Positions 1 to 57,650 of a DNA stretch of 57,650 bases are shown one piece after another. Every line of letters begins with the position of its first letter. Position 1 is the first letter of the stretch. A program made the translations under genes and the position numbers. This stretch comes from Spirochaetota bacterium. GTDB lineage: Bacteria; Spirochaetota; Spirochaetia; SPDA01; B32-G16. The DNA is taken from positions 1 to 57,650 of the forward strand of contig QNBH01000002.1 of NCBI GenBank assembly GCA_003645645.1. The letters run 5' to 3'. The notes beneath the pieces were generated by a model. It was given only the letters and a program-made list of their open reading frames with translations, searched no databases and was not told the DNA's origin.

Positions 1-1
1 G

Positions 2-24177: not shown

Positions 24178-24189
24178 TTTTAAGGGGAG

Positions 24190-25168: not shown

Positions 25169-26188
25169 ATGAAGTCAAAAATAAATGTAGGAATAATTGG
25201 GGCCGGCCGTATTGGTCAGCTCCATGCAGAGAATCTTACAAACCGGATAAGGGGGGTAAGAGTTGCTGCAATTACAGATATAAACATAGAAGCTGCCCGA
25301 AAATGCGCTTCTCGACTCGAAATTCCTCAAGCAGACAGTGATTACAGACGAGTCATGGATAACCCCGATGTGGATGCCGTTATTATATGTTCCAGTACAG
25401 ACACTCATGCCGGGTTTATCGAAGAAGCCGCAGAAACCGGTAAACATATTTTCTGCGAAAAGCCCATAGCGCTCGACCTCCCGGAAATAGACAGAGCTCT
25501 CACGGCAGTGAAGAAAGCCGGAGTGAAGCTCCAGGTAGGTTTTAACCGCCGTTTCGATCCAAATTTTAGCAGAATTCGAGAACTTATTGCAGAGGGCAGG
25601 ATAGGAGAACCTCACATACTGCGGATTACAAGCAGAGATCCGGCTCCTCCACCCATTGAATATGTAAAAGTCTCAGGAGGGCTCTTCCTCGATATGACCA
25701 TACACGATTTCGATATGGCTCGTTTCTTAATAGGTAGTGAAGTGGATGAGGTTTCCGCAATCGGAGGGGTGATGATAGATCAGGAGATAGGAAAGGCGGG
25801 AGATATAGATACCGCCATAACAAATCTCATGTTTGAAAACGGAGTTATGGGTACCATTGACAACAGCAGGAAAGCGGTTTACGGTTATGACCAGAGAGTG
25901 GAGGTCTTCGGTTCTGCAGGTATGCTCACTGCAGAAAATGAAACTCCCAACAGGGTGGCACTGAGTACCGGAGAGGCGGTAATCCAGGATCTACCCCTAT
26001 ATTTCTTTCTGGAAAGGTACCAGGAATCCTACATAAGGGAGATGCAGGAGTTTATTAACTGTATCGTCGACGATAGAGATCCGCCCGTAAGCGGGGAAGA
26101 TGGGAGGATGCCTGTTGTGATTGGAAAGGCAGCCATGCTATCTTTCAAGGAGAGGCGTCCTGTTAAACTCGCAGAGATAAGCGGTTAG
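25169..26188 (+). CDS. iolG: myo-inositol 2-dehydrogenase
   Basis: GAGRIG, CEKP, GFNRRFD, SRDP, DMTIHDFD and YGYDQR motifs. Confidence 0.93.
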   Translation: MKSKINVGIIGAGRIGQLHAENLTNRIRGVRVAAITDINIEAARKCASRLEIPQADSDYRRVMDNPDVDAVIICSSTDTHAGFIEEAAETGKHIFCEKPIALDLPEIDRALTAVKKAGVKLQVGFNRRFDPNFSRIRELIAEGRIGEPHILRITSRDPAPPPIEYVKVSGGLFLDMTIHDFDMARFLIGSEVDEVSAIGGVMIDQEIGKAGDIDTAITNLMFENGVMGTIDNSRKAVYGYDQRVEVFGSAGMLTAENETPNRVALSTGEAVIQDLPLYFFLERYQESYIREMQEFINCIVDDRDPPVSGEDGRMPVVIGKAAMLSFKERRPVKLAEISG

Positions 26189-42583: not shown

Positions 42584-42664
42584 AAGCTTAAAGCAGTTAG
42601 AAATCGCTAAAAAGATGTTTTAGAAGGGTTTGGATATGAGTCTTATAATTTAGTTTACCGGCTT

Positions 42665-42687
42665 GCCTGAGGAGAAGCTGCTCAGGC
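42665..42687. terminator. Hairpin between convergent genes
   Basis: GCCTGAG-N9-CTCAGGC. Confidence 0.35.
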
Positions 42688-42752
42688 TCAAGGATTCTCT
42701 GGAGGAGCCACACACCCCTAACAGGGAAAGAGTAGCAGCCCGGCTAACCTGG

Positions 42753-44318
42753 TCAAGGAAATCCCTCCACCGAACCGTCAAACCCGAACCGCTCTTTAAG
42801 GGCTTTTCGAAAAGCCGGGGGGTTTATTTTTAAAAGCCTGGCAGCCTGCTCCCTGTTTCCTCCCGATATCTTAAGAGCTTTCTCGTAATAATCCCTCTCT
42901 ATCTGGTATAGTAAAGCCTTAAGATCGACTCCACTTTGTGGAAGCTTGATCTCGATACCGGGAAGGGGCGGCTCCTTGTTAAAATATGACAGGATGGCAG
43001 GGGGAAGTATTTCCGGTCCGATAAGATCGGATTGACTAACGGCACAGACGGAGATAACGGTATTTTCAAGTTGTCTCACATTCCCCGGCCACGGATAGGA
43101 TAGGATATAATGCATTGCCTCTTCGGAGAACCTCTTGTTCTCTCCGTGTTTCTCGTTCCACTCTTTTAAAAATGTTGCCGACAGAAGAGGTATATCTTCT
43201 TGACGTTCCCTGAGCGGGGGAACTTCCAGGGTAACCTGGTTAAGTCTCTCGTATAAGTCTCTTCTGAACGTACCCTCATCGATCATCTGTTCAAGGTTTT
43301 TATTTGTTGCAGCTATGACCCGTATATCAACAGTTAGACCTGTATCTGCCCCCAGGGGAAGAAGGGTTTTCTCTTCAAGCACTCTAAGGAGTTTTGGCTG
43401 GACCTCCGGAGGCAAATCACCGACCTCATCGAGAAATACTATTCCCCGATCGGCTGCACGGAACTGACCCAACCTGCTCCTGCTTGCACCGGTAAAGGCT
43501 CCCTTTTCATGACCGAAGAGCTCGCTTTCTGCAAGCGTCGATGTTATGGAAGCGCAATTAACGGGAAGAAACGGTTTTTCCGCTCTATCACTGTGTTGAT
43601 GGATGAATTTTGCAACTAACTCTTTACCGGTTCCGGTCTCCCCCCTAATTAGTACAGTAATATCATAGGAGGCTATGCGTAAGGCTCTTTGAAGAGTTTC
43701 TCTGATGGGATCGGACTCTCCAATGATTTCTGCTCTTGTTGTGGTAGTAATCCATCGATCCCCGGAACTTTTATTACCCTGAACGCGGATATCATCTCTT
43801 CTTAATTTAATTTCCGGGAAAATCCCCTTATCAAGGTTAACCTCTCTTACCTTGTATGCTCCGCCTGTAAAGCGGGGTGGAATCCCCTGGAGTAATCTGG
43901 CGGGGATGTATCCGGACCTGGCCAGGAGAAACCACACCGTTTGCATCTGAGGAGTTCCCGAATCAAGAAGAATAGACAATTCCACTTTAAGATGTCTGAG
44001 CTGTCCGAGAATCTTATCGACAGCATCCTTTATTTTTGTATAAACTTCCTCGTAATCCACCGGAGAGAAAATATCCAAGTTTATAAAAGCGAATTTTGTT
44101 TTATTGGATTCTGTACCCTTATCCGTTCGTTCGCCCAGTACCTCCTCAACCATACGTGCCCGTTCAAAATACTCATAGCCTGAGCAGAAAAGATAGACCC
44201 TGTGGAAATACCTTTCATTTAAAAGGCAGAGAAGCGGCCCCCATTCCTCGCTCTCTTCGGGATAGGGGTCGCGGTTGCCTACAAAACTAAAGAGAACATC
44301 TATCTTATTAACCGCCAT
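42753..44318 (-). CDS. sigma54-dependent activator with an N-terminal CARF-like (RtcR-type) domain
   Basis: Rossmann-like N-terminus LFSFVGNRDPY...SPVDYEEVY...LLDSGTPQMQTVW; AAA+ motifs GETGTGKE, ESELFGHEKGAFTGA, FLDEVG and WPGNVRQL; C-terminal HTH. No receiver domain. Confidence 0.85.
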   Translation of the reverse strand: MAVNKIDVLFSFVGNRDPYPEESEEWGPLLCLLNERYFHRVYLFCSGYEYFERARMVEEVLGERTDKGTESNKTKFAFINLDIFSPVDYEEVYTKIKDAVDKILGQLRHLKVELSILLDSGTPQMQTVWFLLARSGYIPARLLQGIPPRFTGGAYKVREVNLDKGIFPEIKLRRDDIRVQGNKSSGDRWITTTTRAEIIGESDPIRETLQRALRIASYDITVLIRGETGTGKELVAKFIHQHSDRAEKPFLPVNCASITSTLAESELFGHEKGAFTGASRSRLGQFRAADRGIVFLDEVGDLPPEVQPKLLRVLEEKTLLPLGADTGLTVDIRVIAATNKNLEQMIDEGTFRRDLYERLNQVTLEVPPLRERQEDIPLLSATFLKEWNEKHGENKRFSEEAMHYILSYPWPGNVRQLENTVISVCAVSQSDLIGPEILPPAILSYFNKEPPLPGIEIKLPQSGVDLKALLYQIERDYYEKALKISGGNREQAARLLKINPPAFRKALKERFGFDGSVEGFP

Positions 44319-44322
44319 TTGC

Positions 44323-44424
44323 CTGCTCCCATATTTTAACCTTTATTGCACAAAGAAGGCTTGCCGCAAATGACGGCATGCCTCTTCAAAGTTAACTGCT
44401 CCCCTATTATAACCTTTATTGCAC
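44323..44424. repeat. 29-bp direct repeat pair flanking a 44-bp hairpin-containing spacer
   Basis: CTGCTCCC(A/C)TATT(T/A)TAACCTTTATTGCAC at 44323-44351 and 44396-44424; 27/29 identical. Confidence 0.92.
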
Positions 44425-44524
44425 GCTAGCAAGTATAATTGTTGTTTTTAAAAAATTGTAGATTCAAGATTACAAAAGTTAGCCTTCGGTAACTCTGGTT
44501 TCACATAAAGGCTAAGAAAGGCAG

Positions 44525-44565
44525 AAATTATGCTCAAATTTCTCCAAATTATGCAAATTTTCTCC
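44525..44565. repeat. Tandem ~21-bp repeat just upstream of the sigma54 promoter
   Basis: AAATTATGCTCAAATTTCTCC / AAATTATGCAAATTTTCTCC. Confidence 0.8.
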
Positions 44566-44576
44566 CGAAATTGAGA

Positions 44577-44592
44577 TGGCACAAAAATTGCT
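44577..44592 (+). promoter_or_regulatory. sigma54 (-24/-12) promoter oriented toward the cas operon
   Basis: TGGCACAAAAATTGCT matches the consensus TGGCAC-N5-TTGC(T/A). Confidence 0.85.
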
Positions 44593-44618
44593 ATACAATT
44601 AAAAGAGGAGTTGGGGTG

Positions 44619-44690
44619 ATGTATTCACTTCCTACTGAGGGTTTAATTAATTCCTTGGAAAAGATCGTTTACATAAATGCAGAGAGTTAA
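44619..44690 (+). CDS. Putative 23-aa small ORF (MYSLPTEGLINSLEKIVYINAES)
   Basis: GAGGAG RBS at 44605-44610, just after the predicted sigma54 start site. Confidence 0.35.
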   Translation: MYSLPTEGLINSLEKIVYINAES

Positions 44691-44784
44691 GATAACCAAA
44701 AGGTTCGTAAGACCTTTAAGGCGTTACACCCCGATTAGCTCTGTCAGGATTCTGTGGAATTTTTATATTTTTTGGAATATTTAG

Positions 44785-44813
44785 TTGCATTATCCGGAAT
44801 GGTGATTTATAAT
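44785..44813 (+). promoter_or_regulatory. sigma70 promoter upstream of cas6, overlapped by an inverted repeat
   Basis: TTGCAT-N17-TATAAT; TTATCCGGAA (44790-44799) and TTCCGGATAA (44837-44846). Confidence 0.65.
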
Positions 44814-44871
44814 AAAAAAGAGTCTTCATTGCGCAGTTCCGGATAAAATAACTACGGATAAGGATGCTGCT

Positions 44872-45786
44872 TTGAAACTTAACCATCAAACATTCGAGTG
44901 CATTTTAAAAAGTGAGCGCTCTATTTATTTCGACACCTTTCCCACCTTTATCTTCAGAAGCGTTATAGGAAAGGAATTGAGAAAAATAAGTTGCCTTTTT
45001 AAGAACAGGAATTGCAGTGAATGTTCTTTAAAAAACACCTGTGCATACTCTTTCATTTTCGAGACGCCGGTGGATAAGGAGAACAGGCTTCTCCATGGCA
45101 GAAACAGGGCTCCCCATCCCTTTACTCTCTACTCGCCTGTAAGTGCGAATGAAACGACAGACACCATAGCCCTGAATATCACGATGTTTGGTAAAAGTAT
45201 CGAGTACTTTCCCTATCTCTATTTCTCGTTAAAGCAGGCGGGAGAGAAGGGGATTTTCAGAGACAGAGTGCGGTTATCGGTGGATTCACTCTTATGTGGA
45301 GATAGCTCGATTCTCTTAGAAGAAGAGAAAATCGATACTTCTGTTCCTCCCCGGGTTTGGCGTATTGAAGGCAGTGAAGATAGGCAGGTAAAAAAGATCA
45401 ATATAAAGTTACTTTCTCCTCTGAGGCTTAAATACAGCGGGAAATATGGCACGGATTTTACCTGTTTCGATTTTCTAAATGCAGTAGAGCGAAGGGCAAG
45501 ACTCTTATGCGGGTTTTTCGGAGAAGACCAGCAGGATAGAAATAAGCCTGTTTTTTCAACCGGCAACAAGCAAATTACGGAGCGAGACCTTATATGGCAC
45601 GACTACAGATACTACTCTTCCCGCCAGAAATCGAGACTTAAAATGGGAGGTACAGTGGGTTCCTTTTCTCTGGAAGGAGAGTTTTCATCCGGGGAGCTTT
45701 CCCTGTTGAAAGGTGCGGAGCTTTTTCAGGTGGGAAAAAACTCTGTTTTCGGCTTCGGAAAGATATCGATTTACGAAGAGGATTAA
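44872..45786 (+). CDS. cas6: CRISPR pre-crRNA endoribonuclease Cas6
   Basis: C..C..C..C..C cluster with PHPF, SPLRL, MGGTVG and the C-terminal G-loop VGKNSVFGFG. Confidence 0.92.
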   Translation: MKLNHQTFECILKSERSIYFDTFPTFIFRSVIGKELRKISCLFKNRNCSECSLKNTCAYSFIFETPVDKENRLLHGRNRAPHPFTLYSPVSANETTDTIALNITMFGKSIEYFPYLYFSLKQAGEKGIFRDRVRLSVDSLLCGDSSILLEEEKIDTSVPPRVWRIEGSEDRQVKKINIKLLSPLRLKYSGKYGTDFTCFDFLNAVERRARLLCGFFGEDQQDRNKPVFSTGNKQITERDLIWHDYRYYSSRQKSRLKMGGTVGSFSLEGEFSSGELSLLKGAELFQVGKNSVFGFGKISIYEED

Positions 45787-45789
45787 GCT

Positions 45790-47994
45790 GTGCGGATTGC
45801 CTTAACTTCCCTTGGTCAATCATGGGCTATTATTCCGGAATTGACAGGTTTTTTATATCCTCGTGGGTACGACTTCTTCAAGAATCATCCCGATGCCGGC
45901 AAAATCAACTCATCTCGTGAGTTTCTGGGGGCAGGCAAGCTGGATGAGCTCTGGGTATTGGCAACAGAAGAGAGAAACTCTTTAAAAGCAGTGGATAAAA
46001 TACGGATGTGGAGCGAGCTTGTTTATCTCGATATTCCCATAAGGGTATGGATAACTTCAGGATTGTCGGATCTTTTCTCTCCGGAGGATTGTGCGCATAT
46101 GCGCGATGCCGTGTTGAGGTTGTGTATGCTGTGCAGAAAACTGGTGGGTAGAAATACGGAGATAATTTTCTCCCTGGCCGGTGGGAGAAAAACAATGAGT
46201 GCAGATATTCAATATTCAGCCTCTTTTTTCGGCCCCGGAGTATTGATCCATGTTGCAGACAGAAATATTCCGCCTTATTTCAAAGACCCCGACCCTTCTT
46301 TGCTTTTAATTCCACCGGGTCGAGAACTTGCCTCCTCCTTCATGCCGCTTATTATAGGTAAATATCCCGAGAACAGTCTCTCCGCACAGATCGATAGCAA
46401 GGATTTCACACTTCCCGAGTACACTCCACACAAAAGGCAGTACCGAATCCCCCTTGATAAGAATCTGGCTCAAAAGGTGGATGGGATACTCAATTCGGCA
46501 TCAAACTTCCTGTTCTACCAGATTTTTGATAAGACCTATGCGCAGAAGGAAAGTTCAAACTATTCCAGGTTGTTCGTTCTCCCGCCTGCGAGGATAAAAG
46601 ATTTAAGAAATATCCGGCTGGGAATTGAGCCGGAAAGAACAAAGGAGGAGTTGGTTCTGGTTAAGAAGCTTCCCAAAGCCGATCTTCATTGCCATCTCGG
46701 AGGAGTACTCACGGTAGAGGAGATTGTAGAGATAGCCCGAATACATGAAAATGAAGTTGGATGCTGGGAGAGAAAACACGAAGGCTTTCACAGGAAGAGA
46801 GAGGAGTGGATGCAGATTGCTTCGAAGGGAGATCCCACTGCCGTTTCGGAAAAAATAGGAGGGGAGAGGATAAGAGAATTGAGGGTTATGTTTAAAGAGA
46901 TCCCCCAGCCTTTTACCGTATGCGGGTTTCTCCTTTGCTTTATAGAGAATCCCCATCTCCTTGAGCAGGCCTTGTATGGGCGATGGATGAACGAGTCCGA
47001 TTTTACCGGTATTGGGATGAATGAGTACGAACGTTTGGGCGACCTGCAGGGGTCTGCATTGCTTCAGACAGAACCTGTTATCAGGGCGGTGGTGAGAAAA
47101 ACCGTAGAAAAGTGCATAGAGGATAATGTTACATACCTGGAATTACGCTGTTCACCTCAGAATTATACAAGGGGCGGACTTAAAATAGAGAAGGTTTTCG
47201 GAATAATAGATGATGAGCTTAAGAAAGCTTCCCACCGGATAGAGAACGGTATAATCCTAATAACAAGCAGGCACAGAAAAATGGACGAAATCTTCTCTAC
47301 TATAGAGTTAATAGATCATCTAGTTGAAGAAAACAGGGCGGGAAGGATCCTTGGGGTGGATCTGGCGGGAGATGAAACCTCATTGGCGCCTGCAAACCTT
47401 AGAGAGCACTTTCTTAGATTTATGGACAGGTGTATGCATATAACAATTCACGCCGGAGAGAACCAGGTTGCCGGGAATATCTGGGAGGCGGTGTATCACC
47501 TGAGTGCGGAGAGAATCGGGCACGGTCTTACCCTTTCGTATAAACCCGAACTAATGAAAAAGTTTCTCGACAGAGGCATCGGTATCGAGATGTGTCCGTC
47601 GAGCAACAGACAGATTGTGGGGTATACAGACTTCTGCCAGGAAAAAGTCGATAAAGCTATTTCTTCCGGCATAAAAGCAGAAGCACAATCCTCATCAATT
47701 TCGGAGAAGAGGATTCCCCATACCTACCCCTTAAAGGAGTTTCTCGATTATGGATTGAAGGTTTCGGTTAACACAGACAACATGGGTATCTCCCGTACAA
47801 GCCTTTCGAAAGAGCTGCTTCAGGCAGCCCGATTAACTCCCAGGGGATTGTCCGTAATGGAGATACTCCAGCTTATTAAGAACGCCTATTCTTCTGCATT
47901 TACAGATCACGATACGAGGAAAAAGCTAATTCTCGATTCCGAGAGGAGAATAATCGAGCTATTTCAGAGTGAGGAGGTTTTACCAGGTGGATGA
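45790..47994 (+). CDS. cad1: CARF-domain adenosine deaminase effector (Cad1/CAAD-like)
   Basis: CARF motifs LTSLGQSW and SLAGGRKTMS; deaminase motifs LPKADLHCHLGG, YLELR, GVDLAGDE, TIHAGE, RIGHG, EMCPSSN and VNTDN. Confidence 0.9.
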   Translation: MRIALTSLGQSWAIIPELTGFLYPRGYDFFKNHPDAGKINSSREFLGAGKLDELWVLATEERNSLKAVDKIRMWSELVYLDIPIRVWITSGLSDLFSPEDCAHMRDAVLRLCMLCRKLVGRNTEIIFSLAGGRKTMSADIQYSASFFGPGVLIHVADRNIPPYFKDPDPSLLLIPPGRELASSFMPLIIGKYPENSLSAQIDSKDFTLPEYTPHKRQYRIPLDKNLAQKVDGILNSASNFLFYQIFDKTYAQKESSNYSRLFVLPPARIKDLRNIRLGIEPERTKEELVLVKKLPKADLHCHLGGVLTVEEIVEIARIHENEVGCWERKHEGFHRKREEWMQIASKGDPTAVSEKIGGERIRELRVMFKEIPQPFTVCGFLLCFIENPHLLEQALYGRWMNESDFTGIGMNEYERLGDLQGSALLQTEPVIRAVVRKTVEKCIEDNVTYLELRCSPQNYTRGGLKIEKVFGIIDDELKKASHRIENGIILITSRHRKMDEIFSTIELIDHLVEENRAGRILGVDLAGDETSLAPANLREHFLRFMDRCMHITIHAGENQVAGNIWEAVYHLSAERIGHGLTLSYKPELMKKFLDRGIGIEMCPSSNRQIVGYTDFCQEKVDKAISSGIKAEAQSSSISEKRIPHTYPLKEFLDYGLKVSVNTDNMGISRTSLSKELLQAARLTPRGLSVMEILQLIKNAYSSAFTDHDTRKKLILDSERRIIELFQSEEVLPGG

Positions 47995-48628
47995 AATGAT
48001 CCTTTGTGTACCACGAAAAATTATTCCGAAAGAGTTGAGGAATGATAGAGTCTCAAGCCCCTTGCAGTGGGAGGTGCTTGCCACTGCACTTACATCATCT
48101 TCCCTGATGTTTCTTCCAAGAAGAGAAGTAGAGGGGAACCCTTCTTTAAAGCAGATTATACCTTACGTGCTTATTAGAAACTCTGTCGGATCCCTGCTTT
48201 GTTATGAGCGGGCAGGTTCAGAGGAGAGGCTTCACGGCCAGTTGTCGCTGGGTATCGGGGGGCATGTAAGCATGGAAGATATAGAGGGCCGGCCCAATAC
48301 GAAAGGGGAATTAAACTTGCTTACAGCAGGAGAGAGCTTCCTTGAGCAGGTAGTGTGTAAGGCAATCGAACGGGAACTGGAGGAGGAAGCGGGATTAGAT
48401 GACGGAGCCAGGGCTCGATTCATGGGTGTTATAAACGAGGAGTTGACCCCTGTCGGTAGAGTGCATTTCGGACTTGTTTTTGAGTACCTGCTTAATCGGG
48501 GTGATAGTGCGGTTACCGGAGAAGAGCTTGCCCACTCATCCTGGATGGATATGGAGGAGATTTATGCACGCAGGGATGAGTTTGAATTGTGGTCACAACT
48601 CGCCCTTGAACTGGTAGAAAGAGATTAG
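47987..48628 (+). CDS. NUDIX-family hydrolase
   Basis: KQIIPY, EERLHGQLSLGIGGHV and RELEEEAG motifs; overlaps the deaminase stop codon. Confidence 0.88.
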   Translation: MDEMILCVPRKIIPKELRNDRVSSPLQWEVLATALTSSSLMFLPRREVEGNPSLKQIIPYVLIRNSVGSLLCYERAGSEERLHGQLSLGIGGHVSMEDIEGRPNTKGELNLLTAGESFLEQVVCKAIERELEEEAGLDDGARARFMGVINEELTPVGRVHFGLVFEYLLNRGDSAVTGEELAHSSWMDMEEIYARRDEFELWSQLALELVERD

Positions 48629-48646
48629 GAAAGGAGGAGGAAGTAG

Positions 48647-51022
48647 ATGGATAGAGGTTTAGACTCAGAGTTTTATGAAGTTGTTTTGGCAGGATTATTA
48701 CACGATATAGGTAAGTTTGCTCAGAGGACAGGTCTTGATAAATATAAAAAGACAGAAATGGAAGGCCAGCTATGCAAGAAAGCAGAAAAAGGAGATTATT
48801 ATACACACCAACATGTACTTTACACATTGGGAGTATTGGAATCATTTAAAGGGATATTTCCCGATGGTATAGATATAATTAATGTAATAAATCTTGCCTC
48901 AAGCCATCACAATCCCTCAAAGCATCTCGATAAAATTATTTCCCATGCAGACATAATTTCTTCCGGACATGACAGAAGATCTGAAAAGGAGCTTGAAAAT
49001 GAAAAAAACCAGAAATATTACGAAAAACCTCTAATAAGTGTTTTATGGAGCGTCAGTTTGCCCGGGAAAGTAAACGGCAATGAGGAAAATTGTAAATTAC
49101 CTTTAAAAAAATTATCCCCGGAGACGATCTTTCCACGAAGCGATATTTCTATTTCAAAAAAAGATTACCTTGAATTATGGGAAGATTTTGAAAACGATTT
49201 ATATGAGTTGAGAAATCTGGATATACACCACTTTCTTAGTGCATTAAATACGATACTTGAACAATACACATTGTGCATACCTTCAACCACAGTGGATGAT
49301 CCGGATATTAGTTTATACGATCATCTTATTACAACTGCTGCCTTCTCTGCGGTACTATACAAATATCATAAACAAACGGAATCTCTTGACTCTGATAAGT
49401 CCATTTCAGATACCACCAAAGAGAAATTTCTCTTTGTTATAGGTGATGTCAGCGGCATACAAAGATACATATTTAATCTAAAAACTACAAAACATAACGC
49501 AAAAATGCTTAGGGCCAAATCTTTTGAGATTCAATATATTGCCCAATCGGTTGCAAATACACTTCTCGAAGAATGCGGATTACCTATCTTTTGTGCTTTG
49601 ATGAATGCTGGTGGCAGATTTTTGCTTGTTCTTCCGAATACAGAAAAAACGGCCAAAATACTTAAAGATTTTCGCAGAGCCTGTGAATCATTTTTCCTGG
49701 AAAGGTATTTCGGAGAACTTTCTTTAAATATTTCAAAGGGTGTTTCTGTTGCGGAAAAAGATTTAATTGGTGAAAAAGCTAAAGAATTATTTAGGAAATT
49801 ATCTTTTGATTCTGCTGAGGCAAAGCAGAAAAAACTACAGACTGCTCTTTCATCGGTTGAAAATCATATCATAGGTAAAGAATACAAGAAAATACAGGAG
49901 TATAATTTGGTTTGTAAAAATTGTGATTGCAGAGCTGTAGTTTATGATAATGAGGAAAAGTTATGTCCGCCATGCAAGGTTCTTGTAACTATAGGTACAA
50001 AGCTTCCAAAAGTGAGTTATATAGGTTTCAAACCTCTGGCCTGGAAGAGGGGTAAATTAGATTTTAGCTTAAAAGATGTTCTGCTCAGAGAGGAAGAATC
50101 AGATTTTCCCCCAGGCATAATAATCAATACTGTAAATAGTTATACCCCTGGAAAACCTCTATATAGTATACCCTATCATATTCCGGTTAACAGTGAGTCC
50201 GGAGATCCGTTAACATTCGAAAAATTAGCTGAAAAGAATGAAGGTGCAAAAAAAATTGCAATGTTTAAGGCCGACCTGGATAATCTTGGTGCAATTTTTT
50301 CTTTTGGATTGAAAAAAAGACTTTCTATTTCACGTTATGTTTCTTTAAGCAGGAGCATCAATTATTTTTTCTCTACATGGTTAAACCACGAAATAAAAAA
50401 TTACAAAAAAAATAATAATCCGTCCTTCTCAGATATATACACCGTATTTTCCGGAGGTGACGATCTATGTGTGATAGGTCCATGGGAAAGAGTTATCGAT
50501 TTTGCTTTGCATGTGAGGAAGAAATTTGCAGAGTTCACAGCAGGTAATACTTCACTGACTATTTCAGGCGGTATAGTTTTAGCGGGAAGTAGCTTACCTG
50601 TAAGCTCTATCGCCCATAGTGCAGAAGAAGCACTCGATGCTTCCAAGGAATTGGACGGTAAGAATGCACTTACTATTTTTAATACGACTATGAAATGGGA
50701 TGAGGCTGAAGAGATGGTTAAAGCAGGAGAGAAAATAACTCGACTGTTGAAAGAAAACGGAAAAAAAGAAGAGAAGATCGGACACGGAATTGTTTACAGA
50801 TTGATAGAATACAGTGATCGGGCTTTAAAAGTTAAGAACGGTAATATAAAAAGCAAGAATGTGCTATGGCGAAGTCATTTTTTCTATGATGTTGCTCGCA
50901 ATTTAAAAAACTTGGAAAAGGACGATATGGAGTGGTTTATCAGCCTTGCAGATGAACATTCCATAAAATATTTAAGGGTACCGGCGAGTTATGCACTCTA
51001 CCGGTTAAGAAAAAAAACTTAA
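48647..51022 (+). CDS. cas10: Type III-A Cas10/Csm1
   Basis: HD motif LLHDIGK, DISLYDH, GDVSGIQ, KADLDNLG and Palm2 SGGDDL. Confidence 0.97.
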   Translation: MDRGLDSEFYEVVLAGLLHDIGKFAQRTGLDKYKKTEMEGQLCKKAEKGDYYTHQHVLYTLGVLESFKGIFPDGIDIINVINLASSHHNPSKHLDKIISHADIISSGHDRRSEKELENEKNQKYYEKPLISVLWSVSLPGKVNGNEENCKLPLKKLSPETIFPRSDISISKKDYLELWEDFENDLYELRNLDIHHFLSALNTILEQYTLCIPSTTVDDPDISLYDHLITTAAFSAVLYKYHKQTESLDSDKSISDTTKEKFLFVIGDVSGIQRYIFNLKTTKHNAKMLRAKSFEIQYIAQSVANTLLEECGLPIFCALMNAGGRFLLVLPNTEKTAKILKDFRRACESFFLERYFGELSLNISKGVSVAEKDLIGEKAKELFRKLSFDSAEAKQKKLQTALSSVENHIIGKEYKKIQEYNLVCKNCDCRAVVYDNEEKLCPPCKVLVTIGTKLPKVSYIGFKPLAWKRGKLDFSLKDVLLREEESDFPPGIIINTVNSYTPGKPLYSIPYHIPVNSESGDPLTFEKLAEKNEGAKKIAMFKADLDNLGAIFSFGLKKRLSISRYVSLSRSINYFFSTWLNHEIKNYKKNNNPSFSDIYTVFSGGDDLCVIGPWERVIDFALHVRKKFAEFTAGNTSLTISGGIVLAGSSLPVSSIAHSAEEALDASKELDGKNALTIFNTTMKWDEAEEMVKAGEKITRLLKENGKKEEKIGHGIVYRLIEYSDRALKVKNGNIKSKNVLWRSHFFYDVARNLKNLEKDDMEWFISLADEHSIKYLRVPASYALYRLRKKT

Positions 51023-51033
51023 GGAGGAATGAT

Positions 51034-51462
51034 ATGAGCATTGTTTTTTACGAACAAGGATCGGACTTGGTTAGATCGGAGTTATTCGATAAGGATGCAA
51101 AGCAATGGGCCGAGAGGTTGGTTAAACCAATAGGAGAGAGAAAAGTAAAGGGAGTAAGCAGGCATCAATTCAGAAGACTATTCGAAGAGGTAAAACGGTT
51201 ACAGAAGATGCTTATCAATGAAAAAAGAAAGTGGGCTTATGTTAAGCCCTTTGTGAAAATGCTTAAGCCCAAAACAGCATACACGGTTGCCCGGGCAAAA
51301 GATAAAGAAAAAAATGCCGGTGTGTATTACGATGCATTAAAAGACCTTTTTAATGAAGGTATAGATGGAGTAAATACAGAGCGAGACTTTAGAGCTTTCT
51401 GTGATTTCCTCGAAGCAGTTTACGGATACTACTACGAATTAGGCGGTGTAAATACAAAATAA
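51034..51462 (+). CDS. csm2: Csm2 small subunit
   Basis: SRHQFRRLF, AYTVAR and F.DFLEAVYGY motifs; position after cas10. Confidence 0.93.
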   Translation: MSIVFYEQGSDLVRSELFDKDAKQWAERLVKPIGERKVKGVSRHQFRRLFEEVKRLQKMLINEKRKWAYVKPFVKMLKPKTAYTVARAKDKEKNAGVYYDALKDLFNEGIDGVNTERDFRAFCDFLEAVYGYYYELGGVNTK

Positions 51463-51491
51463 TGATAATCAATTATTAAGGAGGATTAAAA

Positions 51492-52184
51492 ATGGCTTAC
51501 AACAAACACTACATTAAAAGTATAACCGGAAAAATTAAAGTATTAACAGGACTGCACATTGGTGCAGGCAGTGATGTTATCGAAATAGGCGGAATGGACA
51601 ATCCCATAATCAAGAATCCCATAACAGGTGAGCCCTATATTCCAGGTTCATCTTTAAAGGGAAAGATGAGAAGCCTTATGGAATGGTACTTCAACAAAGT
51701 AAAAGTTAACGGCGGAGAACCGTGTAAATGCGGAGAACCTGATTGTGAAATCTGCAGGGTTTTCGGTTGTGCCATACAAAATACAGAGAAGTCAGTTGAA
51801 AAATCAAAAAAGCGAGGTCCTACAAGACTTATAGTGAGGGATGCATTTCTCACTGAGGAAACTAAAGAGAAATTTGCCGGTAAGAATCTTGTTGAAGATA
51901 AAAGTGAAAACTCAATAAACAGACTCACTGCTGCTGCCACCCCTCGCCATCTGGAAAGGGTAGTACCTGGAACTGAATTCGACTTTTCATTATCCTACAG
52001 GTTTTTTGACATGGAAGATGGTTTTGAGATAGATGAGAGATATTTCAGGGATGTAGTTCTAAAAGCATTGGCCATTCTGGAACATGATTTTTTAGGAGGA
52101 GGAGGAAGCAGGGGCAGTGGTAAAATTATGTTTGTAGACTTAAGAGATGAAAAGGAGAAGGAAGTAATATTGCCGGAGGTGTAA
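51492..52184 (+). CDS. csm3: Csm3 RAMP
   Basis: TGLHIG, IGGMDNP (catalytic Asp), PYIPGSSLKGKMRS and LGGGGSRGSG motifs. Confidence 0.96.
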   Translation: MAYNKHYIKSITGKIKVLTGLHIGAGSDVIEIGGMDNPIIKNPITGEPYIPGSSLKGKMRSLMEWYFNKVKVNGGEPCKCGEPDCEICRVFGCAIQNTEKSVEKSKKRGPTRLIVRDAFLTEETKEKFAGKNLVEDKSENSINRLTAAATPRHLERVVPGTEFDFSLSYRFFDMEDGFEIDERYFRDVVLKALAILEHDFLGGGGSRGSGKIMFVDLRDEKEKEVILPEV

Positions 52185-52189
52185 GATTT

Positions 52190-53134
52190 ATGAAAACCTT
52201 TAAAATACAGGTTGAGGTTAAATCGCCATTACTTACTCCTCTCCATGGCGATACTCTTTTCGGCCATTTGTGCTGGGGAATAGTCAGGCATGAGGGTGAA
52301 GATGCTCTACAGGAGTTTTTCTTAAAGTACAAAGATGTTAATACCATACCTATTATCTTATCCAATGCTTTCCCGGAAGATACTATTCCATACCCACAGT
52401 TAAGTCCTTCGATGTTAAAAGAGACTGACAATATAGAGGAATATAAATTAAGAAAAAAAGAAAAAAAATATTCCTGCATTCCTGCAGAGTTGATTCTTAA
52501 TAACAATCAAAAAATATCAAGAGAGACGATTCACAATTCGGTCAGAGAAAAAACGATCGAGTCATATAGGGCATGCTCCAGATTACGAAATAAAATAAAT
52601 AGGTTAAGCAATACCACATTTGAAGACTCTGTATATCCGGTTGAGGAAATCTGGTATTTCGAACGATATAAAAACGGCAAGTCCTTACCAGCTCTTTTAG
52701 ACATATATGCACTATCCAATGAGAATGAAAATCGAATCGAAGAATTACTAGAGTGGGCAATAGAGACAGGTTATGGAGCAGACAAGTCTCTGGGGTATGG
52801 AATACTTAATATAAAAGGAATCGAAGAAGTTTTCTTTCCCGAGACTGGTAACAGATGTATGGCTTTAGGTCATTTTGTACCAGAGAAAAACGAGAATCTT
52901 AAAAACTTAAAAGCAGATGTATTTACAAAATACGGTAAGTTGAGTGGGGATAAATTATTATCGTCGAATCCATTTAAAAAACCTATTGTCATGTACCGTG
53001 AAGGAGCAACGTTTGATTTTTCTGGTCAACAATTTGTAGGAACCCTTTTGAAAGATGTACATGCAGACAATAGAATCAGACATCATGCTTTTGCTCCTTT
53101 AATACGATTCACAGAGGAGGAGAAGACTTCATGA
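52190..53134 (+). CDS. csm4: Csm4 RAMP
   Basis: HGDTLFGHL, LSNAFP, GYGADKSLGYG and YREGATF motifs. Confidence 0.93.
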   Translation: MKTFKIQVEVKSPLLTPLHGDTLFGHLCWGIVRHEGEDALQEFFLKYKDVNTIPIILSNAFPEDTIPYPQLSPSMLKETDNIEEYKLRKKEKKYSCIPAELILNNNQKISRETIHNSVREKTIESYRACSRLRNKINRLSNTTFEDSVYPVEEIWYFERYKNGKSLPALLDIYALSNENENRIEELLEWAIETGYGADKSLGYGILNIKGIEEVFFPETGNRCMALGHFVPEKNENLKNLKADVFTKYGKLSGDKLLSSNPFKKPIVMYREGATFDFSGQQFVGTLLKDVHADNRIRHHAFAPLIRFTEEEKTS

Positions 53135-54285
53135 ACAGCATAAAACATAGATACATATTAAAAATTACACCTTTGACTGCAGTACATATAGGAACTGGAT
53201 TGGAACTAACTCCTTTTAACTATGTCATTAAGTTAAATAAAAATAGGACTCCGACTTTATATAGATTTATTCCGGGACAGGTAATTTCATTTTTAAGTTC
53301 TGAACAAAAAAAAGAACTTGAGAAATTATCAGAAAGCGGAAATATTCTTCCTCTAAGAAAGTTTCTTTATAATAACTTCAAAGCTGGTATGGAAATATAT
53401 TCATTACCTGTTTCAAAAGATATAGCAAAATCTTACGTTAATAATCTTCAATCAGAGAGAAATCAATTAATTATTAACGAAATGTACCGTAAAGGGGATA
53501 TTTACTCTCCTGTAATTCCCGGTAGTTCGCTGAAGGGAGCCATCAGAACGGCGGTATTGAATAAAAAAGTACGAGAAAAAACAAGCAGGGGATATGCTGT
53601 GCCTAAAATAAATAAAGAAATTCAAAAGCAGGCTTTGAATTATAAAGATGCAAAAGACGATCCTTTCAGAGCTGTCAGCATCTCGGATTGTGTTATTAAG
53701 AAAAGAAGTAAGAATCAAATTGTATCCAATCTTTTTATATATAAGAATACCAGGGGAGAAAACTCGAGAATAGAGATGCAGATGACCTATGAGCTTATAA
53801 GGGGGAAATTGTTTAACGGCAGTGCAATTGGGGGAGTTGAATTACTCATTGATAATCCTTTAATTGAGTTTCCACCTGTTGGAAATTGGGAAGGTATAAA
53901 AGTTAAACTCAATATTAAAGAGATTGCCGATTCCTGCAACAAGTTTTATAAGGATGCATTTAAAGAAGAGTTTAACAAACACTACGGTTCTTGTAACGAG
54001 TTTCTGCTAAAGAATAATCTCGAAATGCTTGAAAGGGAAATAGATGACATAGGTTCTGATTCTAATAAAATTTCATTTTTACTTAGAGTTGGAAGATTCA
54101 GTCAGGTGGAATGTGTAACCCTGGAAGAGCCATACAGATCACCATTCAACAAAAAAGGATATGGTAAAACAAGAACGCTTGCAAGGTACAATGATCTGGA
54201 GATGCCCTTAGGATGGGTTAGGGTAGATGTAGAGAAAGCATACATAAATGGAAAGCCAACTGAAAGGGCGGTATATCATAACTAG
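53131..54285 (+). CDS. csm5: Csm5 RAMP
   Basis: LTAVHIGTG, IPGSSLKGAIRTA, DPFR, LRVGR and PLGWV motifs. Confidence 0.93.
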   Translation: MNSIKHRYILKITPLTAVHIGTGLELTPFNYVIKLNKNRTPTLYRFIPGQVISFLSSEQKKELEKLSESGNILPLRKFLYNNFKAGMEIYSLPVSKDIAKSYVNNLQSERNQLIINEMYRKGDIYSPVIPGSSLKGAIRTAVLNKKVREKTSRGYAVPKINKEIQKQALNYKDAKDDPFRAVSISDCVIKKRSKNQIVSNLFIYKNTRGENSRIEMQMTYELIRGKLFNGSAIGGVELLIDNPLIEFPPVGNWEGIKVKLNIKEIADSCNKFYKDAFKEEFNKHYGSCNEFLLKNNLEMLEREIDDIGSDSNKISFLLRVGRFSQVECVTLEEPYRSPFNKKGYGKTRTLARYNDLEMPLGWVRVDVEKAYINGKPTERAVYHN

Positions 54286-54296
54286 GTAAAACTGAA

Positions 54297-54701
54297 ATGA
54301 AACCTTCATTTTTCATATTGATGAATCACGAACTAACGCCTCACCAGGAAAAGGAAGTAAAGGAAGTGATGAAATGCAGGTGTATCATCACTCCGCCAAA
54401 AAAGATAAAAGATATCTGGATAAAAATAACTCCTTACGGAATGATCGACACAGAAGCATTAGAGGAGATTACGGATTATCTATCAATAAAAGCCAGGGAA
54501 GGAGATTACGTTCTAGTCCAGGGAGAGTTCGGAGCCACCTTCTATATCGTAGATTACTGTTTCTGGAATGGGTTGGTTCCTGTTTATGCAACTTCCGAGA
54601 GGCGGTACAACGAAAGACATACAGAAGAGGGAAGCATAGAAAGACATCATATATTCAGCCATGTGCAGTTCAGAAAATATGTTAGATGGAGGAATCCATG
54701 A
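54297..54701 (+). CDS. csx20: Csx20-like protein, putative ring nuclease
   Basis: NHELT..Q, GDYVLVQGEFGATF, PVYATSER and FSHVQFRKY motifs. Confidence 0.78.
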   Translation: MKPSFFILMNHELTPHQEKEVKEVMKCRCIITPPKKIKDIWIKITPYGMIDTEALEEITDYLSIKAREGDYVLVQGEFGATFYIVDYCFWNGLVPVYATSERRYNERHTEEGSIERHHIFSHVQFRKYVRWRNP

Positions 54702-55990
54702 GTAACGTATTTTTATCCTTTCTGGGAACAAGCGATTATAAAACGTGTAATTACCATTACGGAAACAAGATAAGAAAAACTGTAGTATTCGCCCAGGAAG
54801 CTATTCTTAATTTTTTTTGCATGCACTTTAAAGAAAATGACAAGATACTAATTTTCCTTACAGAAAAAGCAAAGGAGAAAAATTGGGAGAAAAACAGTAA
54901 AGGTATTGGACTTAAAGAAACCATTGAAAACTTAGAACTTCCTGCACAATTGATACCGGTATCAATTCCAGAAGGCAACTCGGAAGAAGAAATATGGAAA
55001 ATTTTCGAAATTGTTTATGAGCACCTTGAACCGGAGGATGAGGTGATCCTCGATATAACCCACTCATTCAGATCGATCCCCATGTTAACAATGGTTCTTC
55101 TCAACTACACGCGATTCCTTAAAGATATAAAAATAAAAGGTATCTATTACGGAGCCTACGAAGCACGTATTGGTGAAGATGCGCCTGTTTTCGACCTTAC
55201 GAGTTTCGAACGGTTGCAACGTTGGAGTATTGCAGCAGAAAACTTTGTAAATCATGGGATAACGGATGCCATTGCAAATCTTGTTTATCCTCAGGTGAAT
55301 CCATTGTTAAAAGAAAGCATGGGCTCGAATGAAAGTGCGAAGGCGGAAAGTTATTTTGCTAAACTTTTAAACAGAGTCGGAAGTTATTTCAGTACGGTGA
55401 GGGGGAAAAGAATCTACATGGGTAGAGAAATAAATCGCCTTAAGCAGAATCTCAATCAAGTAAAAGAGGGCGAACTGATAATCAAACCCTTAAGACCATT
55501 GTTGGATAAAGTCCGTCAAAAGATAGAAGCTTTCAAGCCTGAGTCCATAGACAATATGATAGAAGCAGTAAAATGGTGTATAAATCATGATCTTATTCAG
55601 CAGGGGATAACAATGCTGCAGGAGACAATTATCTCTTATATCCTCGAAGAGAACGGGCTTGAGTGGTATGCGAAGGATAGAGCAACATCTGAGAAGAAAA
55701 AGAAAGTTAAGAGGTTAAGAGAAGATTTATCCCAGGCGATCCATCTATATGGCAAAAACGGCGATAGAAACGATTGGGATTATGAGTTTAAAATTCACAG
55801 CAAAATAATCAAGAAGGTAATAGAAAGTGAATCTTTTCAACGACTGTTTAAAACCAATGAAAAATTAAGGGATCTGCGTAACGATATAAATCACGCCGGT
55901 TTGATAGATGATTTTGAGCCGGGCAATTTTAAAGATAAACTTAAAAGCTCATTTGAAGAGATAAAGAAAATTATATTGTATGGAGGATAA
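54698..55990 (+). CDS. csx1: Csx1/TM1812-type CARF-HEPN ribonuclease
   Basis: FLSFLGT..Y, LDITHSFRS, YYGAYE and the HEPN motif RNDINH; GGAGG RBS. Confidence 0.9.
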   Translation: MSNVFLSFLGTSDYKTCNYHYGNKIRKTVVFAQEAILNFFCMHFKENDKILIFLTEKAKEKNWEKNSKGIGLKETIENLELPAQLIPVSIPEGNSEEEIWKIFEIVYEHLEPEDEVILDITHSFRSIPMLTMVLLNYTRFLKDIKIKGIYYGAYEARIGEDAPVFDLTSFERLQRWSIAAENFVNHGITDAIANLVYPQVNPLLKESMGSNESAKAESYFAKLLNRVGSYFSTVRGKRIYMGREINRLKQNLNQVKEGELIIKPLRPLLDKVRQKIEAFKPESIDNMIEAVKWCINHDLIQQGITMLQETIISYILEENGLEWYAKDRATSEKKKKVKRLREDLSQAIHLYGKNGDRNDWDYEFKIHSKIIKKVIESESFQRLFKTNEKLRDLRNDINHAGLIDDFEPGNFKDKLKSSFEEIKKIILYGG

Positions 55991-55992
55991 AT

Positions 55993-57078
55993 GTGTCCAC
56001 CATATATATTGTTTCCGATTACGGAAAACTTATTAAGAAAAATAAAACACTTCAACTTACAAGCAACGATGGAACCACTACAATCATTTTCCCATATAAA
56101 ACCGATCAACTGGTTGTGATGGGAAGTATCGAGATAACAGGGCCTGCACTCAAACTTCTTATGAGATACAACATCGATACCGTTTTCCTTGGAAAAAACG
56201 GAAAATACAACGGTAAAATAGCTTTCCAGGAGAGCAAGAACGTATTCTTAAGACAGAAACAGTTTAAGATGCTTGAGGATAGGGATTTTGTACTCGATTT
56301 CTCAAAATCGGTTGTCAGGGCAAAGCTTAAAAATCAGCTTACCTTCATGCAGAGAATCCACCGCAGAAGGGAAAATGCAAAGCAGTTGCATAAAACGATA
56401 TTAAACATGAAGCTTAATCTCGAAAGGGTTGAGGAAGCCGGAAGTGCGGAACAGTTGAGAGGGATTGAGGGGCTCGGAGCGAGATACTTCTTCTCTCTTT
56501 TTCGGGAAAATATAATACAGGACTGGGCTGTTTTCAAGGGAAGGAGTATGCATCCTCCCGAAGATAACGTTAATGCGGTGTTGAGTTTTCTCTACACCCT
56601 CCTGTTTTTTCGTGTGGATGGAGCCATCGAATCTGAAGGGCTGGATAGTTTTGTAGGATATTTTCATTCCCTGGATTACGGGAAAAGAACCCTGTCCTTT
56701 GATTTAATGGAGGAGTTTCGCACTCCCCTTGCCGATACGCTTTGTTGTTCTCTTTTCAATCTGGCAATTCTGGAAGAAAATGACTTTGAAGAGGTCGTTT
56801 TTTCTGTCGATGACATCGATTACCCTCTTGAGGATGATGGTGAGGAGGAGAAAGGAGAAGGCTCTGTACTATATCAAGAGAAAAAAGGGGTGTTGCTTAC
56901 AAAGAAGGGGTTGAGAAAAGCACTTAAACAATTCGAGAAAAAACTGGAGGATCAATATTATTATCAACCTTTAAAGAGACAGATAAGTTATAAGAAACTT
57001 ATAAGAGAACAGGTAAAACATTTTAAGAGGGTATTAAACGGAGAAGAGAAAATGTACAAGCCAATGGTAATAAAATAA
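55993..57078 (+). CDS. cas1: CRISPR integrase Cas1
   Basis: LRGIEG...YF, PPEDNVNAVLSFLY, GYFH and DLMEEFR motifs. Confidence 0.97.
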   Translation: MSTIYIVSDYGKLIKKNKTLQLTSNDGTTTIIFPYKTDQLVVMGSIEITGPALKLLMRYNIDTVFLGKNGKYNGKIAFQESKNVFLRQKQFKMLEDRDFVLDFSKSVVRAKLKNQLTFMQRIHRRRENAKQLHKTILNMKLNLERVEEAGSAEQLRGIEGLGARYFFSLFRENIIQDWAVFKGRSMHPPEDNVNAVLSFLYTLLFFRVDGAIESEGLDSFVGYFHSLDYGKRTLSFDLMEEFRTPLADTLCCSLFNLAILEENDFEEVVFSVDDIDYPLEDDGEEEKGEGSVLYQEKKGVLLTKKGLRKALKQFEKKLEDQYYYQPLKRQISYKKLIREQVKHFKRVLNGEEKMYKPMVIK

Positions 57079-57091
57079 TAGAAAGACATAT

Positions 57092-57367
57092 ATGATTTAT
57101 ATGTTCTGTTATGATATATCTGATGATAAAAGACTTCGCAGAACGGCTAAGGTTCTGGAGCAGTTTGGGATCAGGGTTCAGAAATCATTTTTCCAGTGTG
57201 AGATGGAAAAGCAGAGGATGCAGGAGCTAAAAGATAAAATAAGGAAAGTAATTAACGAAAGAAAAGATTATTTCTTTATTTATCCGTTATGTGAAGATTG
57301 CAGCAGAAAGGCTCTGACCGATGGCACGGGAGAACTTATCAGGTTGGAGGCTTTTGAGATCTTATGA
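57092..57367 (+). CDS. cas2: Cas2
   Basis: YDISDDKRL and RVQKSFF motifs. Confidence 0.95.
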   Translation: MIYMFCYDISDDKRLRRTAKVLEQFGIRVQKSFFQCEMEKQRMQELKDKIRKVINERKDYFFIYPLCEDCSRKALTDGTGELIRLEAFEIL

Positions 57368-57648
57368 AGCACTGGCTTGTTATCTATGATATCAGGAATG
57401 AGAAACGATTACACCGTGTGGCAAAAACAATGGAACGGTATGGGACAAGAGTACAGAAATCAGTATTTGAGATAGAAGCCGGAAATAAAACCATTAAAAG
57501 ACTCAGAAATCAAGTTAATGATATAATAGAAAGTGAAGATTTTGTAGTATATTTCGACATTTGCGAGAGGGACTGGCAGAAAAGAATGAAGTACGGTCCG
57601 AAAAAGTTTAAGGGGAAACCCTGTGATAAAGAATATCTTATAATTTAA
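57364..57648 (+). CDS. cas2: Second Cas2
   Basis: YDIRNEKRL and RVQKSVFE motifs. Confidence 0.93.
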   Translation: MKHWLVIYDIRNEKRLHRVAKTMERYGTRVQKSVFEIEAGNKTIKRLRNQVNDIIESEDFVVYFDICERDWQKRMKYGPKKFKGKPCDKEYLII

Positions 57649-57650
57649 GA

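Follow-up and report, generated by a model that had tools for sequence, protein, structure and literature searches.

A probable Cad1/CAAD–Nudix accessory module in a Spirochaetota type III-A CRISPR operon with a candidate sigma-54 promoter

Relation to described Cad1/CAAD systems

The closest described relatives of the locus analysed here are type III CRISPR systems that carry a CARF–adenosine deaminase (ADA) fusion protein, Cad1/CAAD. The locus lies on contig QNBH01000002.1 of a Spirochaetota bacterium (assembly GCA_003645645.1; 3.98 Mb in 380 contigs). The entire contig of 57,650 bp was analysed and is referred to below as the window. It carries a cad1 gene and an overlapping gene for a Nudix-fold hydrolase, both within a type III-A (Csm) operon. 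The anatomy of the two genes, the families to which their products belong, the preservation of the catalytic residues and the recurrence of the same gene order elsewhere led to their reading as a Cad1/CAAD–Nudix accessory module of this CRISPR system, with a probability of roughly 0.8. Each enzymatic step is proposed by analogy with characterised homologues.

LngCAAD of Limisphaera ngatamarikiensis (8z3k, 8z3p, 8z40) resembles the window pair in being a type III CARF-ADA protein with a Nudix partner. The chemistry proposed for it, from ATP to inosine triphosphate (ITP) to inosine monophosphate (IMP), is also that proposed here. The window Cad1 is approximately 100 amino acids (aa) longer than LngCAAD and 24-25% identical to it (sequence match 7.2e-49, fold match 1.8e-34). 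Excerpts of PMC12993439 and PMC13276650, both crediting Li et al., Science 2025, report the pairing of a CAAD with a Nudix hydrolase that converts ITP to IMP. These two sources bear out the original prediction, which mentioned a reported partner Nudix that hydrolyses ITP.

BabCad1 of Bacteroidales (Baca et al., Cell 2024, PMC11645235; 9c67) shares with the window Cad1 its domain order, zinc ligands, cyclic oligoadenylate (cOA)-binding lysine and type III-A context. It is a 600-aa protein encoded downstream of the csm genes, whereas the window cad1 lies between cas6 and cas10. The window protein also differs from BabCad1 in having E414 in place of M294, an extra helical insert and an extra loop at ~614-644. 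The word Nudix has 0 occurrences in the text of the BabCad1 paper. TaqCad1/TaqCAAD of Thermoanaerobaculum aquaticum (PMC12669630, PMC12993439; 9ebt, 9ubl) resembles the window system in having Csx1 in the locus and the Gly/Asn signature of Cad1. TaqCAAD belongs to a type III-B system, given in the excerpt of PMC12993439 as a CAAD–Csx1 pair without Nudix, whereas the window system is type III-A and has Nudix, Csx1 and Csx20. The RADAR protein RdrB, discussed in PMC11645235, is likewise a deaminase of ATP/dATP that acts against phages and increases (d)ITP. By its description, RdrB is set apart from the window Cad1 by the lack of a CARF domain, the lack of a CRISPR link and an AAA+ ATPase partner.

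Since Cad1/CAAD chemistry, structures and the Nudix partnership are already in print, the Cad1–Nudix pair adds little by itself. The module in the window is real and was correctly interpreted, but it is ordinary; the regulatory arrangement of the locus is the less ordinary point.

The deaminase, the Nudix protein and their pairing

Sequence and model evidence support the fusion protein as a clear member of the Cad1/CAAD family. Pfam searches returned A_deaminase (PF00962, E 2.6e-49) and Cas_NE0113 CARF (PF09623, E 6.2e-06), and the PADLOC profile CARF5--CARF_ADA spanned residues 3-727 (E 1.9e-179). When solved chains were searched with phmmer, the best match was BabCad1 (9c67, 3.3e-53), followed by TaqCad1 (9ebt, 5.1e-50; 9ubl, ~5e-50) and LngCAAD (8z3k, 7.2e-49); ordinary adenosine deaminases reached 1.6e-24 at best. 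An AlphaFold model was made from a 25-sequence alignment (predicted local distance difference test score, pLDDT, 86.6) and searched with Foldseek. The top matches were the Cad1/CAAD entries 9mmw, 9ofb, 9c77 and 8z3k (E 3.7e-38 to 1.8e-34), and ranks 1-25 among the matches listed were all Cad1/CAAD. Chains consisting of the ADA domain only gave target-normalised TM-scores of 0.78-0.80.

The metal and catalytic motifs of the fusion are H300-C-H302, H554-A-G-E557, H578 (in GHG) and D663 (in NTDN), and these six residues are invariant in the 25-sequence alignment. A hallmark of Cad1 is the replacement of mouse ADA Asp19 by Gly and of Asp296 by Asn, both at positions that contact ATP (PMC12669630). 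Both substitutions are present in the window protein, in HCHLGG (G304/G305 invariant) and NTDN (N664 in at least 90% of the 25 sequences). The cOA-binding lysine of CARF motif II is K104 in BabCad1 (PMC11645235) and K106 in TaqCad1 (PMC12669630); K134 of the window protein, in GGRKT, aligns with both of these lysines and is invariant in the 25 sequences. The CARF-ADA fusion with intact HCH, HAGE and D ligands that the original prediction described was thus read in the translation, and its assignment to Cad1/CAAD agreed with the solved-chain matches, the model fold, the PADLOC profile and the signature residues. Its description of the class as rare was refuted, with Cad1-type homologues forming 435 protein clusters at E <= 1e-10 and Cad1 present in 13 of 400 sampled genomes of the same phylum. 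NTDD and/or HSH were seen instead of NTDN and HCH, the motifs of the characterised enzymes, in five Cad1 relatives (L102, L108, L109, L111 and L008). Those with NTDD therefore have the canonical adenosine-deaminase aspartate at a position said to distinguish Cad1.

Solved or assayed Cad1 proteins in the PDB listing have 600-635 aa, and the window protein is 100-130 residues longer. This extra length is made up of a short insertion within the CARF domain, a confidently predicted bundle of helices that follows the HxH strand (between 309 and 400, pLDDT mostly > 90) and a disordered loop (629-643 in the model). The helical insert has a size of roughly 60 to 90 residues, and its region has invariant positions in the 25-sequence alignment. 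The best 120 database relatives of the window Cad1 are all 683-761 aa in length and form a long clade (roughly 700-720 aa), so that most database relatives belong to a clade with the helical insert and without a solved structure. Close relatives of 651-656 aa lack the insert and keep the Nudix partner. The possibility that the insert, here taken as 318-405, is peculiar to the window Cad1 was therefore rejected, since the long clade shares it and these close relatives lack it; with 14 sequences aligned, only the loop at ~614-644 looks window-specific. The published tree of Baca et al. was made with homologues of 550-650 aa only (PMC11645235, methods excerpt), a filter by which the long clade fell outside that phylogeny. 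By sequence, the length and residue differences appear modest and give no argument against ATP deamination.

The longest open reading frame (ORF) of the Nudix gene starts at GTG 47969 and would overlap the deaminase gene by 26 nt. GTG 47987 was judged to be the better start because AGGAGG lies at 47972-47977, 9 nt 5' of it, because the resulting N-terminus M-D-E-M-I-L aligns with the M-x-E-x-I/V-L of 19 homologues, and because the 213-aa form of the protein is recorded in the protein collection. With this start the overlap with the deaminase stop codon (TGA 47992-47994) is 8 nt. The overlap of the two genes given in the original prediction therefore stands, but the longest-ORF start at 47969, and with it the 26-nt length, does not. 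An 8-nt overlap is a typical coupled-translation junction as judged from the sequence.

A model of the Nudix protein (pLDDT 88.8) matched the folds of TM1382 (3e57, 1.7e-12) and then E. coli YfcD (2fkb, 1.6e-09). Further fold matches were to nucleoside-triphosphate pyrophosphohydrolases such as NUDT15, MutT-type enzymes and NudI. By sequence, the nearest solved proteins were again TM1382 (6.4e-13) and YfcD (0.0013), with none closer than TM1382 in the PDB. The titles of these two entries name no substrate. The window protein differs from them in an extra disordered loop of ~13 aa (pLDDT 56). Residues R129-E130-x2-E133-E134 of the Nudix helix are invariant in 20 sequences. The canonical Nudix box comprises 23 residues, G-x5-E-x7-REUxEExGU. 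The window protein has the REUxEExGU part (as RELEEEAGL), and the 23-residue box as a whole is not matched. The family to which it belongs, annotated as "predicted NUDIX family phosphoesterase", is broad, with 676 matches. Prediction of a Cad1 and Nudix complex gave scores of 0.01, 0.35 and 0.00, which have no bearing on binding either way.

Pairing of the two genes was assessed in two synteny samples, which may share species and in which kin are not independent. The first comprised 80 loci, with one genome per species, of which 16 encoded a full CARF-ADA protein and 64 the deaminase part only. Two of the 16 loci ended inside cad1, leaving 14 with downstream DNA. A Nudix gene of the same family lay directly downstream of cad1 at eight of these 14, namely in Desulfobacterales, Deferribacteraceae, Ozemobacter, Planctomycetota, a gammaproteobacterium, Thiocapsa, Bacteroidetes and Mariniphaga; these loci include III-A as well as III-B systems. 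The second sample comprised the 400 phylum genomes. Among the 13 with Cad1, the Nudix gene was directly downstream in eight, and the five without an adjacent Nudix all belonged to one genus (g61). Anywhere in the genome, the Nudix family was found in 13/13 phylum genomes with Cad1 as against 3/387 without, again among related genomes. Over both samples, and with longest-ORF starts, 15 of the 16 pairs of cad1 and Nudix genes either overlapped or had a gap of no more than 5 nt. The pairing is more than chance. A conserved and usually translationally coupled Nudix partner accompanies Cad1 at more than half of the loci studied, in many phyla and with both type III-A and type III-B systems, so an ITP-to-IMP step is probably a general part of the effector. 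At three loci (L010, L013 and L134) the cad1–nudix pair was followed directly by a Card1/Can2-type CARF nuclease gene (PF23400 + PF09002), and at L001 by an AAA_14/DUF4143 ATPase gene and then csx20 and csx1.

The following course is proposed for the module. Binding of target RNA would cause Cas10, the GGDD motif of which is intact, to synthesise cOA. The cyclic oligoadenylates cA4 and/or cA6 would be bound by the CARF domain of Cad1, which is presumably hexameric, and the zinc deaminase domain would convert ATP to ITP, leading to growth arrest. The Nudix protein, produced by coupled translation from the same mRNA, would hydrolyse ITP to IMP and pyrophosphate. This step could cap or reset ITP toxicity and permit recovery; it could also make the loss of ATP irreversible, with the adenylate pool staying drained. 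The Csx1 CARF-HEPN RNase would provide a second effector that cleaves RNA, like its counterpart in the published TaqCAAD–Csx1 system, accompanied by Csx20, probably for signal turnover.

Several observations weigh against this reading. Identity to characterised Cad1 proteins was only 23-25% in the Foldseek alignments. The position of BabCad1 M294, at which the substitution M294A abolished toxicity (PMC11645235), is E414 in the window protein and E, Q or R in its relatives. The partner protein only just passes the Pfam NUDIX profile (PF00293; 23.6 bits, cut-off 21.1), and its GGH glycine and the Arg of the helix are ~37 residues apart in the window protein and ~22 in its family, compared with 14 in the canonical box. 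No adjacent Nudix gene was found at 6/14 and 5/13 Cad1 loci in the two samples, which indicates that Cad1 works without it. The Nudix family also occurs away from CRISPR loci, in seven genomes of one genus (g61) and in one stand-alone case. No CRISPR array was found in the window by TRF and a direct-repeat search, nor in the 380-contig assembly by a k-mer scan, in which the sole match was a 63-nt coding tandem repeat.

In genus g61 the Nudix gene adjoins a gene for an EamA transporter, as established with Pfam at two of the seven loci (L133 and L138), and a similar ORF layout was seen at L136, L141 and L144. The Nudix homologues at these five loci have 307-321 aa, lie away from the cad1 genes of the genus and carry a C-terminal extension of ~110 aa without a Pfam match. 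The longer Nudix found in this genus probably represents a housekeeping paralogue. A tree was made of 40 Nudix sequences, 17 of them of unknown context, and the members adjacent to cad1 were scattered in it (6 label changes). Such a distribution gives no evidence of recruitment in one event or of a CRISPR subfamily distinct from the rest.

The Nudix protein might act on a substrate other than ITP (dITP or IDP only, ATP/dATP, linear oligoadenylate products or ADP-ribose-like compounds), or it might have a housekeeping role and merely be co-transcribed. The breadth of its family, the occurrence of that family outside CRISPR loci, the failure of the Cad1-adjacent members to form one clade, the absence of a substrate from the titles of the TM1382 and YfcD entries and the non-canonical Nudix box all favour such a function. 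It was nevertheless judged unlikely, since the gene is tightly juxtaposed to cad1, often overlapping it, in at least seven named phylum-level groups, since the family is concentrated in Cad1 genomes by the counts of related genomes given above, and since conversion of ITP to IMP is reported for a Cad1-adjacent Nudix in the two excerpts already cited. A functional shift of the long Cad1 clade, either to another adenine substrate or to mainly ring-nuclease activity of the CARF domain, by which the signal for Csx1 would be dampened, was considered very unlikely. The solved and assayed enzymes are all of the short form and the 683-761-aa clade is uncharacterised as far as seen; the helical insert comes directly after the HxH strand, E414 replaces an active-site Met, many members are named "CRISPR-associated ring nuclease" by NCBI, and TaqCad1 cleaves cA4 (excerpt of PMC12669630). 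TaqCad1, however, has ring-nuclease and deaminase activities together. The long clade retains all the zinc-binding and catalytic residues as well as the two signature residues that contact ATP, and the insert-free forms of 651-656 aa are members of one sequence family with it and still have the Nudix partner, which argues that the insert is a variable decoration.

Regulator and candidate sigma-54 promoter

A gene for a sigma-54 enhancer-binding protein is divergent from the cas operon. RtcR of E. coli and Salmonella (Hughes et al. 2020, PMC7790460) and the RtcR_PspF2 family (Makarova et al. 2014, PMC4012209) have the same arrangement as in the window, with CARF, NtrC-type AAA+ and helix-turn-helix (HTH) parts and a divergent sigma-54 promoter. 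The target of RtcR is rtcBA, whereas that of the window regulator would be the type III-A cas operon. Pfam searches with the regulator returned Sigma54_activat (2.8e-67), RtcR (4.4e-10) and HTH_8 (Fis-type). The protein comprises an RtcR-type CARF N-domain, a sigma-54 AAA+ domain with GAFTGA and Walker motifs, and a Fis-type HTH. Its best PADLOC profile was RtcR_PspF2--CARF_AAA_HTH, over the full length (3.2e-135), and its CARF domain also matched Csm6/Csx1-type CARF1 profiles (1.8e-18). A PDB search with this CARF domain returned nothing meaningful. Identification as RtcR proper was rejected, the NCBIfam RtcR score of 333.7 bits being below the cut-off of 650. The genome carries rpoN and ~18 AAA+ activator paralogues, among which only this one has a CARF N-domain.

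The intergenic region between the regulator gene and cas6 is 553 nt long and contains a sigma-54 type -24/-12 element. The exact core TGGCAC-N5-TTGC at 44577 is the only match in the window with 0 mismatches. Genome-wide there are 20 exact sites, compared with ~7 expected from base composition (hand arithmetic). The two 29-nt direct repeats of the same region lie 150-250 nt upstream of the element and are candidate activator binding sites as judged from their sequence. A near-identical site, TGGCATAAAAATTGCT, is present at 13090. It closely follows the gene of an NtrC-type sigma-54 response regulator (11509-12873) and lies 61 nt before a sugar-binding-protein gene that belongs to an ABC transporter operon. 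It serves as an internal example of this promoter layout in the genome. In the same part of the window (10112-13151), the NtrC-type regulator gene is preceded by a gene for a 466-aa protein that combines an ABC-transporter ATP-binding domain (~7-260) with a histidine-kinase domain (~250-465).

From these sequence features, it was given an even chance that the divergent RtcR_PspF2 regulator activates a sigma-54 promoter from which the operon cas6-cad1-nudix-csm1-5-csx20-csx1-cas1-cas2 is transcribed. It is also quite conceivable, at somewhat under even odds, that the operon is read from an ordinary sigma-70 promoter, that the sigma-54 match is coincidental and that the regulator controls something else or nothing here. 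A sigma-70-like sequence, TTGAGA-17-TACAAT (10/12, 44571-44599), overlaps the sigma-54 site and counts against sigma-54 control, but sigma-70-like matches of at least 9/12 were no commoner in this region than in shuffled sequences (5 against a mean of 7.7). The exact 10-base sigma-54 core, by contrast, is expected ~0.1 times in the whole window (hand arithmetic), and it lies on the correct strand in the one intergenic region beside the sole CARF activator. No other target of the regulator is evident: the ABC transporter genes on its other flank (Pfam) are in the opposite orientation, and rtcB, which is on another contig, lacks both a neighbouring activator gene and an upstream sigma-54 site on the + strand.

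The neighbourhoods of regulator homologues were also compared. Among 11 loci of homologues of the regulator CARF domain that were read, a cas gene adjoins in one (L150), which again counts against sigma-54 control. In seven genomes of the same order the homologue lies beside genes for WYL, PLD-like, PrsW-protease, SMC_N or PIN proteins, some of which are partly defence-like; no cas gene was in view at these seven loci, where 32 of 60 ORFs were scanned on short contigs, several of which stop next to the homologue. The RtcR-like family is moreover listed as not typically near cas genes by Makarova et al. 2014 (PMC4012209). The phylum sample added three more genomes with four further regulator loci, and cas6 was nearby in one of them, L150. 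This is a second case that favours control of a cas operon by the regulator, with a split RtcR_PspF2 gene facing a TGGCAT-N5-GTGC site and cas6 1.1 kb away.

At L150 (G034:C84, 8086-11276) the RtcR_PspF2 gene is broken by an in-frame stop and is divergent from the TGGCAT-N5-GTGC site at 9478, from two small genes whose products have hydrophobic, leader-like N-termini, and from cas6 at the contig end. At L149 (G022:C131, 1424-3546) the RtcR_PspF2 gene ends at 2911, and a sigma-54-like sequence, TGGCACGGTTTTTGCA, at 3066 on the same strand precedes four genes without a PADLOC match.

Regulators of this kind were predicted by Makarova et al. 2014 to sense infection-derived ligands and to activate neighbouring defence genes through sigma-54 (PMC4012209), and RtcR proper binds RNA with a 2',3'-cyclic phosphate end (PMC7790460). 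If sigma-54 control holds, the operon could be an inducible unit with positive feedback, in which the CARF domain of the regulator would sense the Cas10 signal and fire the 44577 promoter on infection; this further proposal is rather doubtful. The ligand might be cOA from Cas10 or a 2',3'-cyclic-phosphate breakdown product, either A2>P released by a ring nuclease or the ends of RNA that Csx1 has cut. A literature search for a link from CRISPR signalling to sigma-54 transcription returned the rtcBA work and the 2014 prediction only, with no experimental demonstration. Were the proposal true, infection would raise the expression of the whole immune operon by a CRISPR signalling-to-sigma-54 route. 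The locus offers a compact system for asking whether a type III operon is sigma-54-induced by its own signalling products.

Operon and neighbouring genes

ORF calls, Pfam, NCBIfam and PADLOC were used to annotate the locus, and the features are collected in Table 1. From 44872 to the contig end there is one tightly packed row of + strand genes. The gap between cas6 and cad1 is 3 nt and that between the Nudix gene and cas10 is 18 nt; no terminator-like site was found on the + strand between 44200 and 49000. The operon is a complete type III-A (Csm) operon in which the HD and GGDD motifs of Cas10 are kept, and Csm2, Csm3, Csm4 and Csm5 each scored above their own NCBIfam cut-off. The position of the CARF-ADA gene between cas6 and cas10 of a type III-A operon was correctly given in the original prediction, with ORFs and Pfam/NCBIfam in agreement.

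Table 1. Features of the CRISPR locus and its upstream region, with positions in the window unless stated as residues.
Feature	Position	Strand	Evidence or remark
RtcR_PspF2-type enhancer-binding protein, 521 aa	42753..44318	-	divergent from cas operon; Pfam, PADLOC
Two direct repeats, 29 nt, 93% alike, 73 nt apart	44323-44351, 44396-44424		candidate activator sites
20-bp tandem repeat, two copies	44525..44565	+	ends 12 nt before -24 element
Sigma-54 type -24/-12 element, TGGCAC-N5-TTGCT	44577..44592	+	280 nt upstream of cas6
cas6	44872..45786	+	PF10040 4.2e-11
cad1/CAAD, CARF-adenosine deaminase fusion, 734 aa	45790..47994	+	Pfam, PADLOC, structure matches
CARF domain of cad1 product	residues ~1-290		
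Adenosine-deaminase barrel of cad1 product	residues ~295-726		
Nudix-fold hydrolase, 213 aa	47987..48628	+	TM1382 / "predicted NUDIX family phosphoesterase" family
cas10/csm1	48647..51022	+	TIGR02578 5.6e-188, 627 bits; HD motif LLHDIGK, GGDD cyclase motif FSGGDDL
csm2	51034..51462	+	Pfam and NCBIfam
csm3	51492..52184	+	TIGR02582 7.2e-65
csm4	52190..53134	+	TIGR01903 9.3e-29
csm5	53131..54285	+	TIGR01899 9.1e-12
csx20	54297..54701	+	NF040559 2.9e-41; PADLOC Csx20
Csx1-type CARF-HEPN RNase	54686..55990	+	TIGR02221, TIGR02549; PADLOC CARF2--CARF_HEPN 5e-117; DxTHG motif
cas1	55993..57078	+	PF01867 2.3e-72
cas2	57092..57367	+	Pfam
second cas2	57364..57650	+	Pfam; runs into contig end

The Csx1-type protein carries R398-N-x3-H403, with R398, N399 and H403 invariant in six sequences. 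Four CARF proteins are thus found together at the locus, namely Cad1, Csx1, Csx20 and the RtcR_PspF2 activator. Five public DNA sequencing runs, from two studies, were listed as containing positions 44300-49000, and no RNA run was among those listed. Public contigs from three DNA runs that overlap the contig end were also searched for a CRISPR array and contained none, their reach being at most 44 nt past the window. An Rfam scan of positions 42000-57650 gave no match at E <= 1. Elsewhere in the window, an inositol catabolism cluster (iolM, iolN, iolO and iolG-type genes) was seen at 21835-26188 and kduI/kduD at 17930-19613, both representing ordinary carbohydrate metabolism flanking the CRISPR locus.

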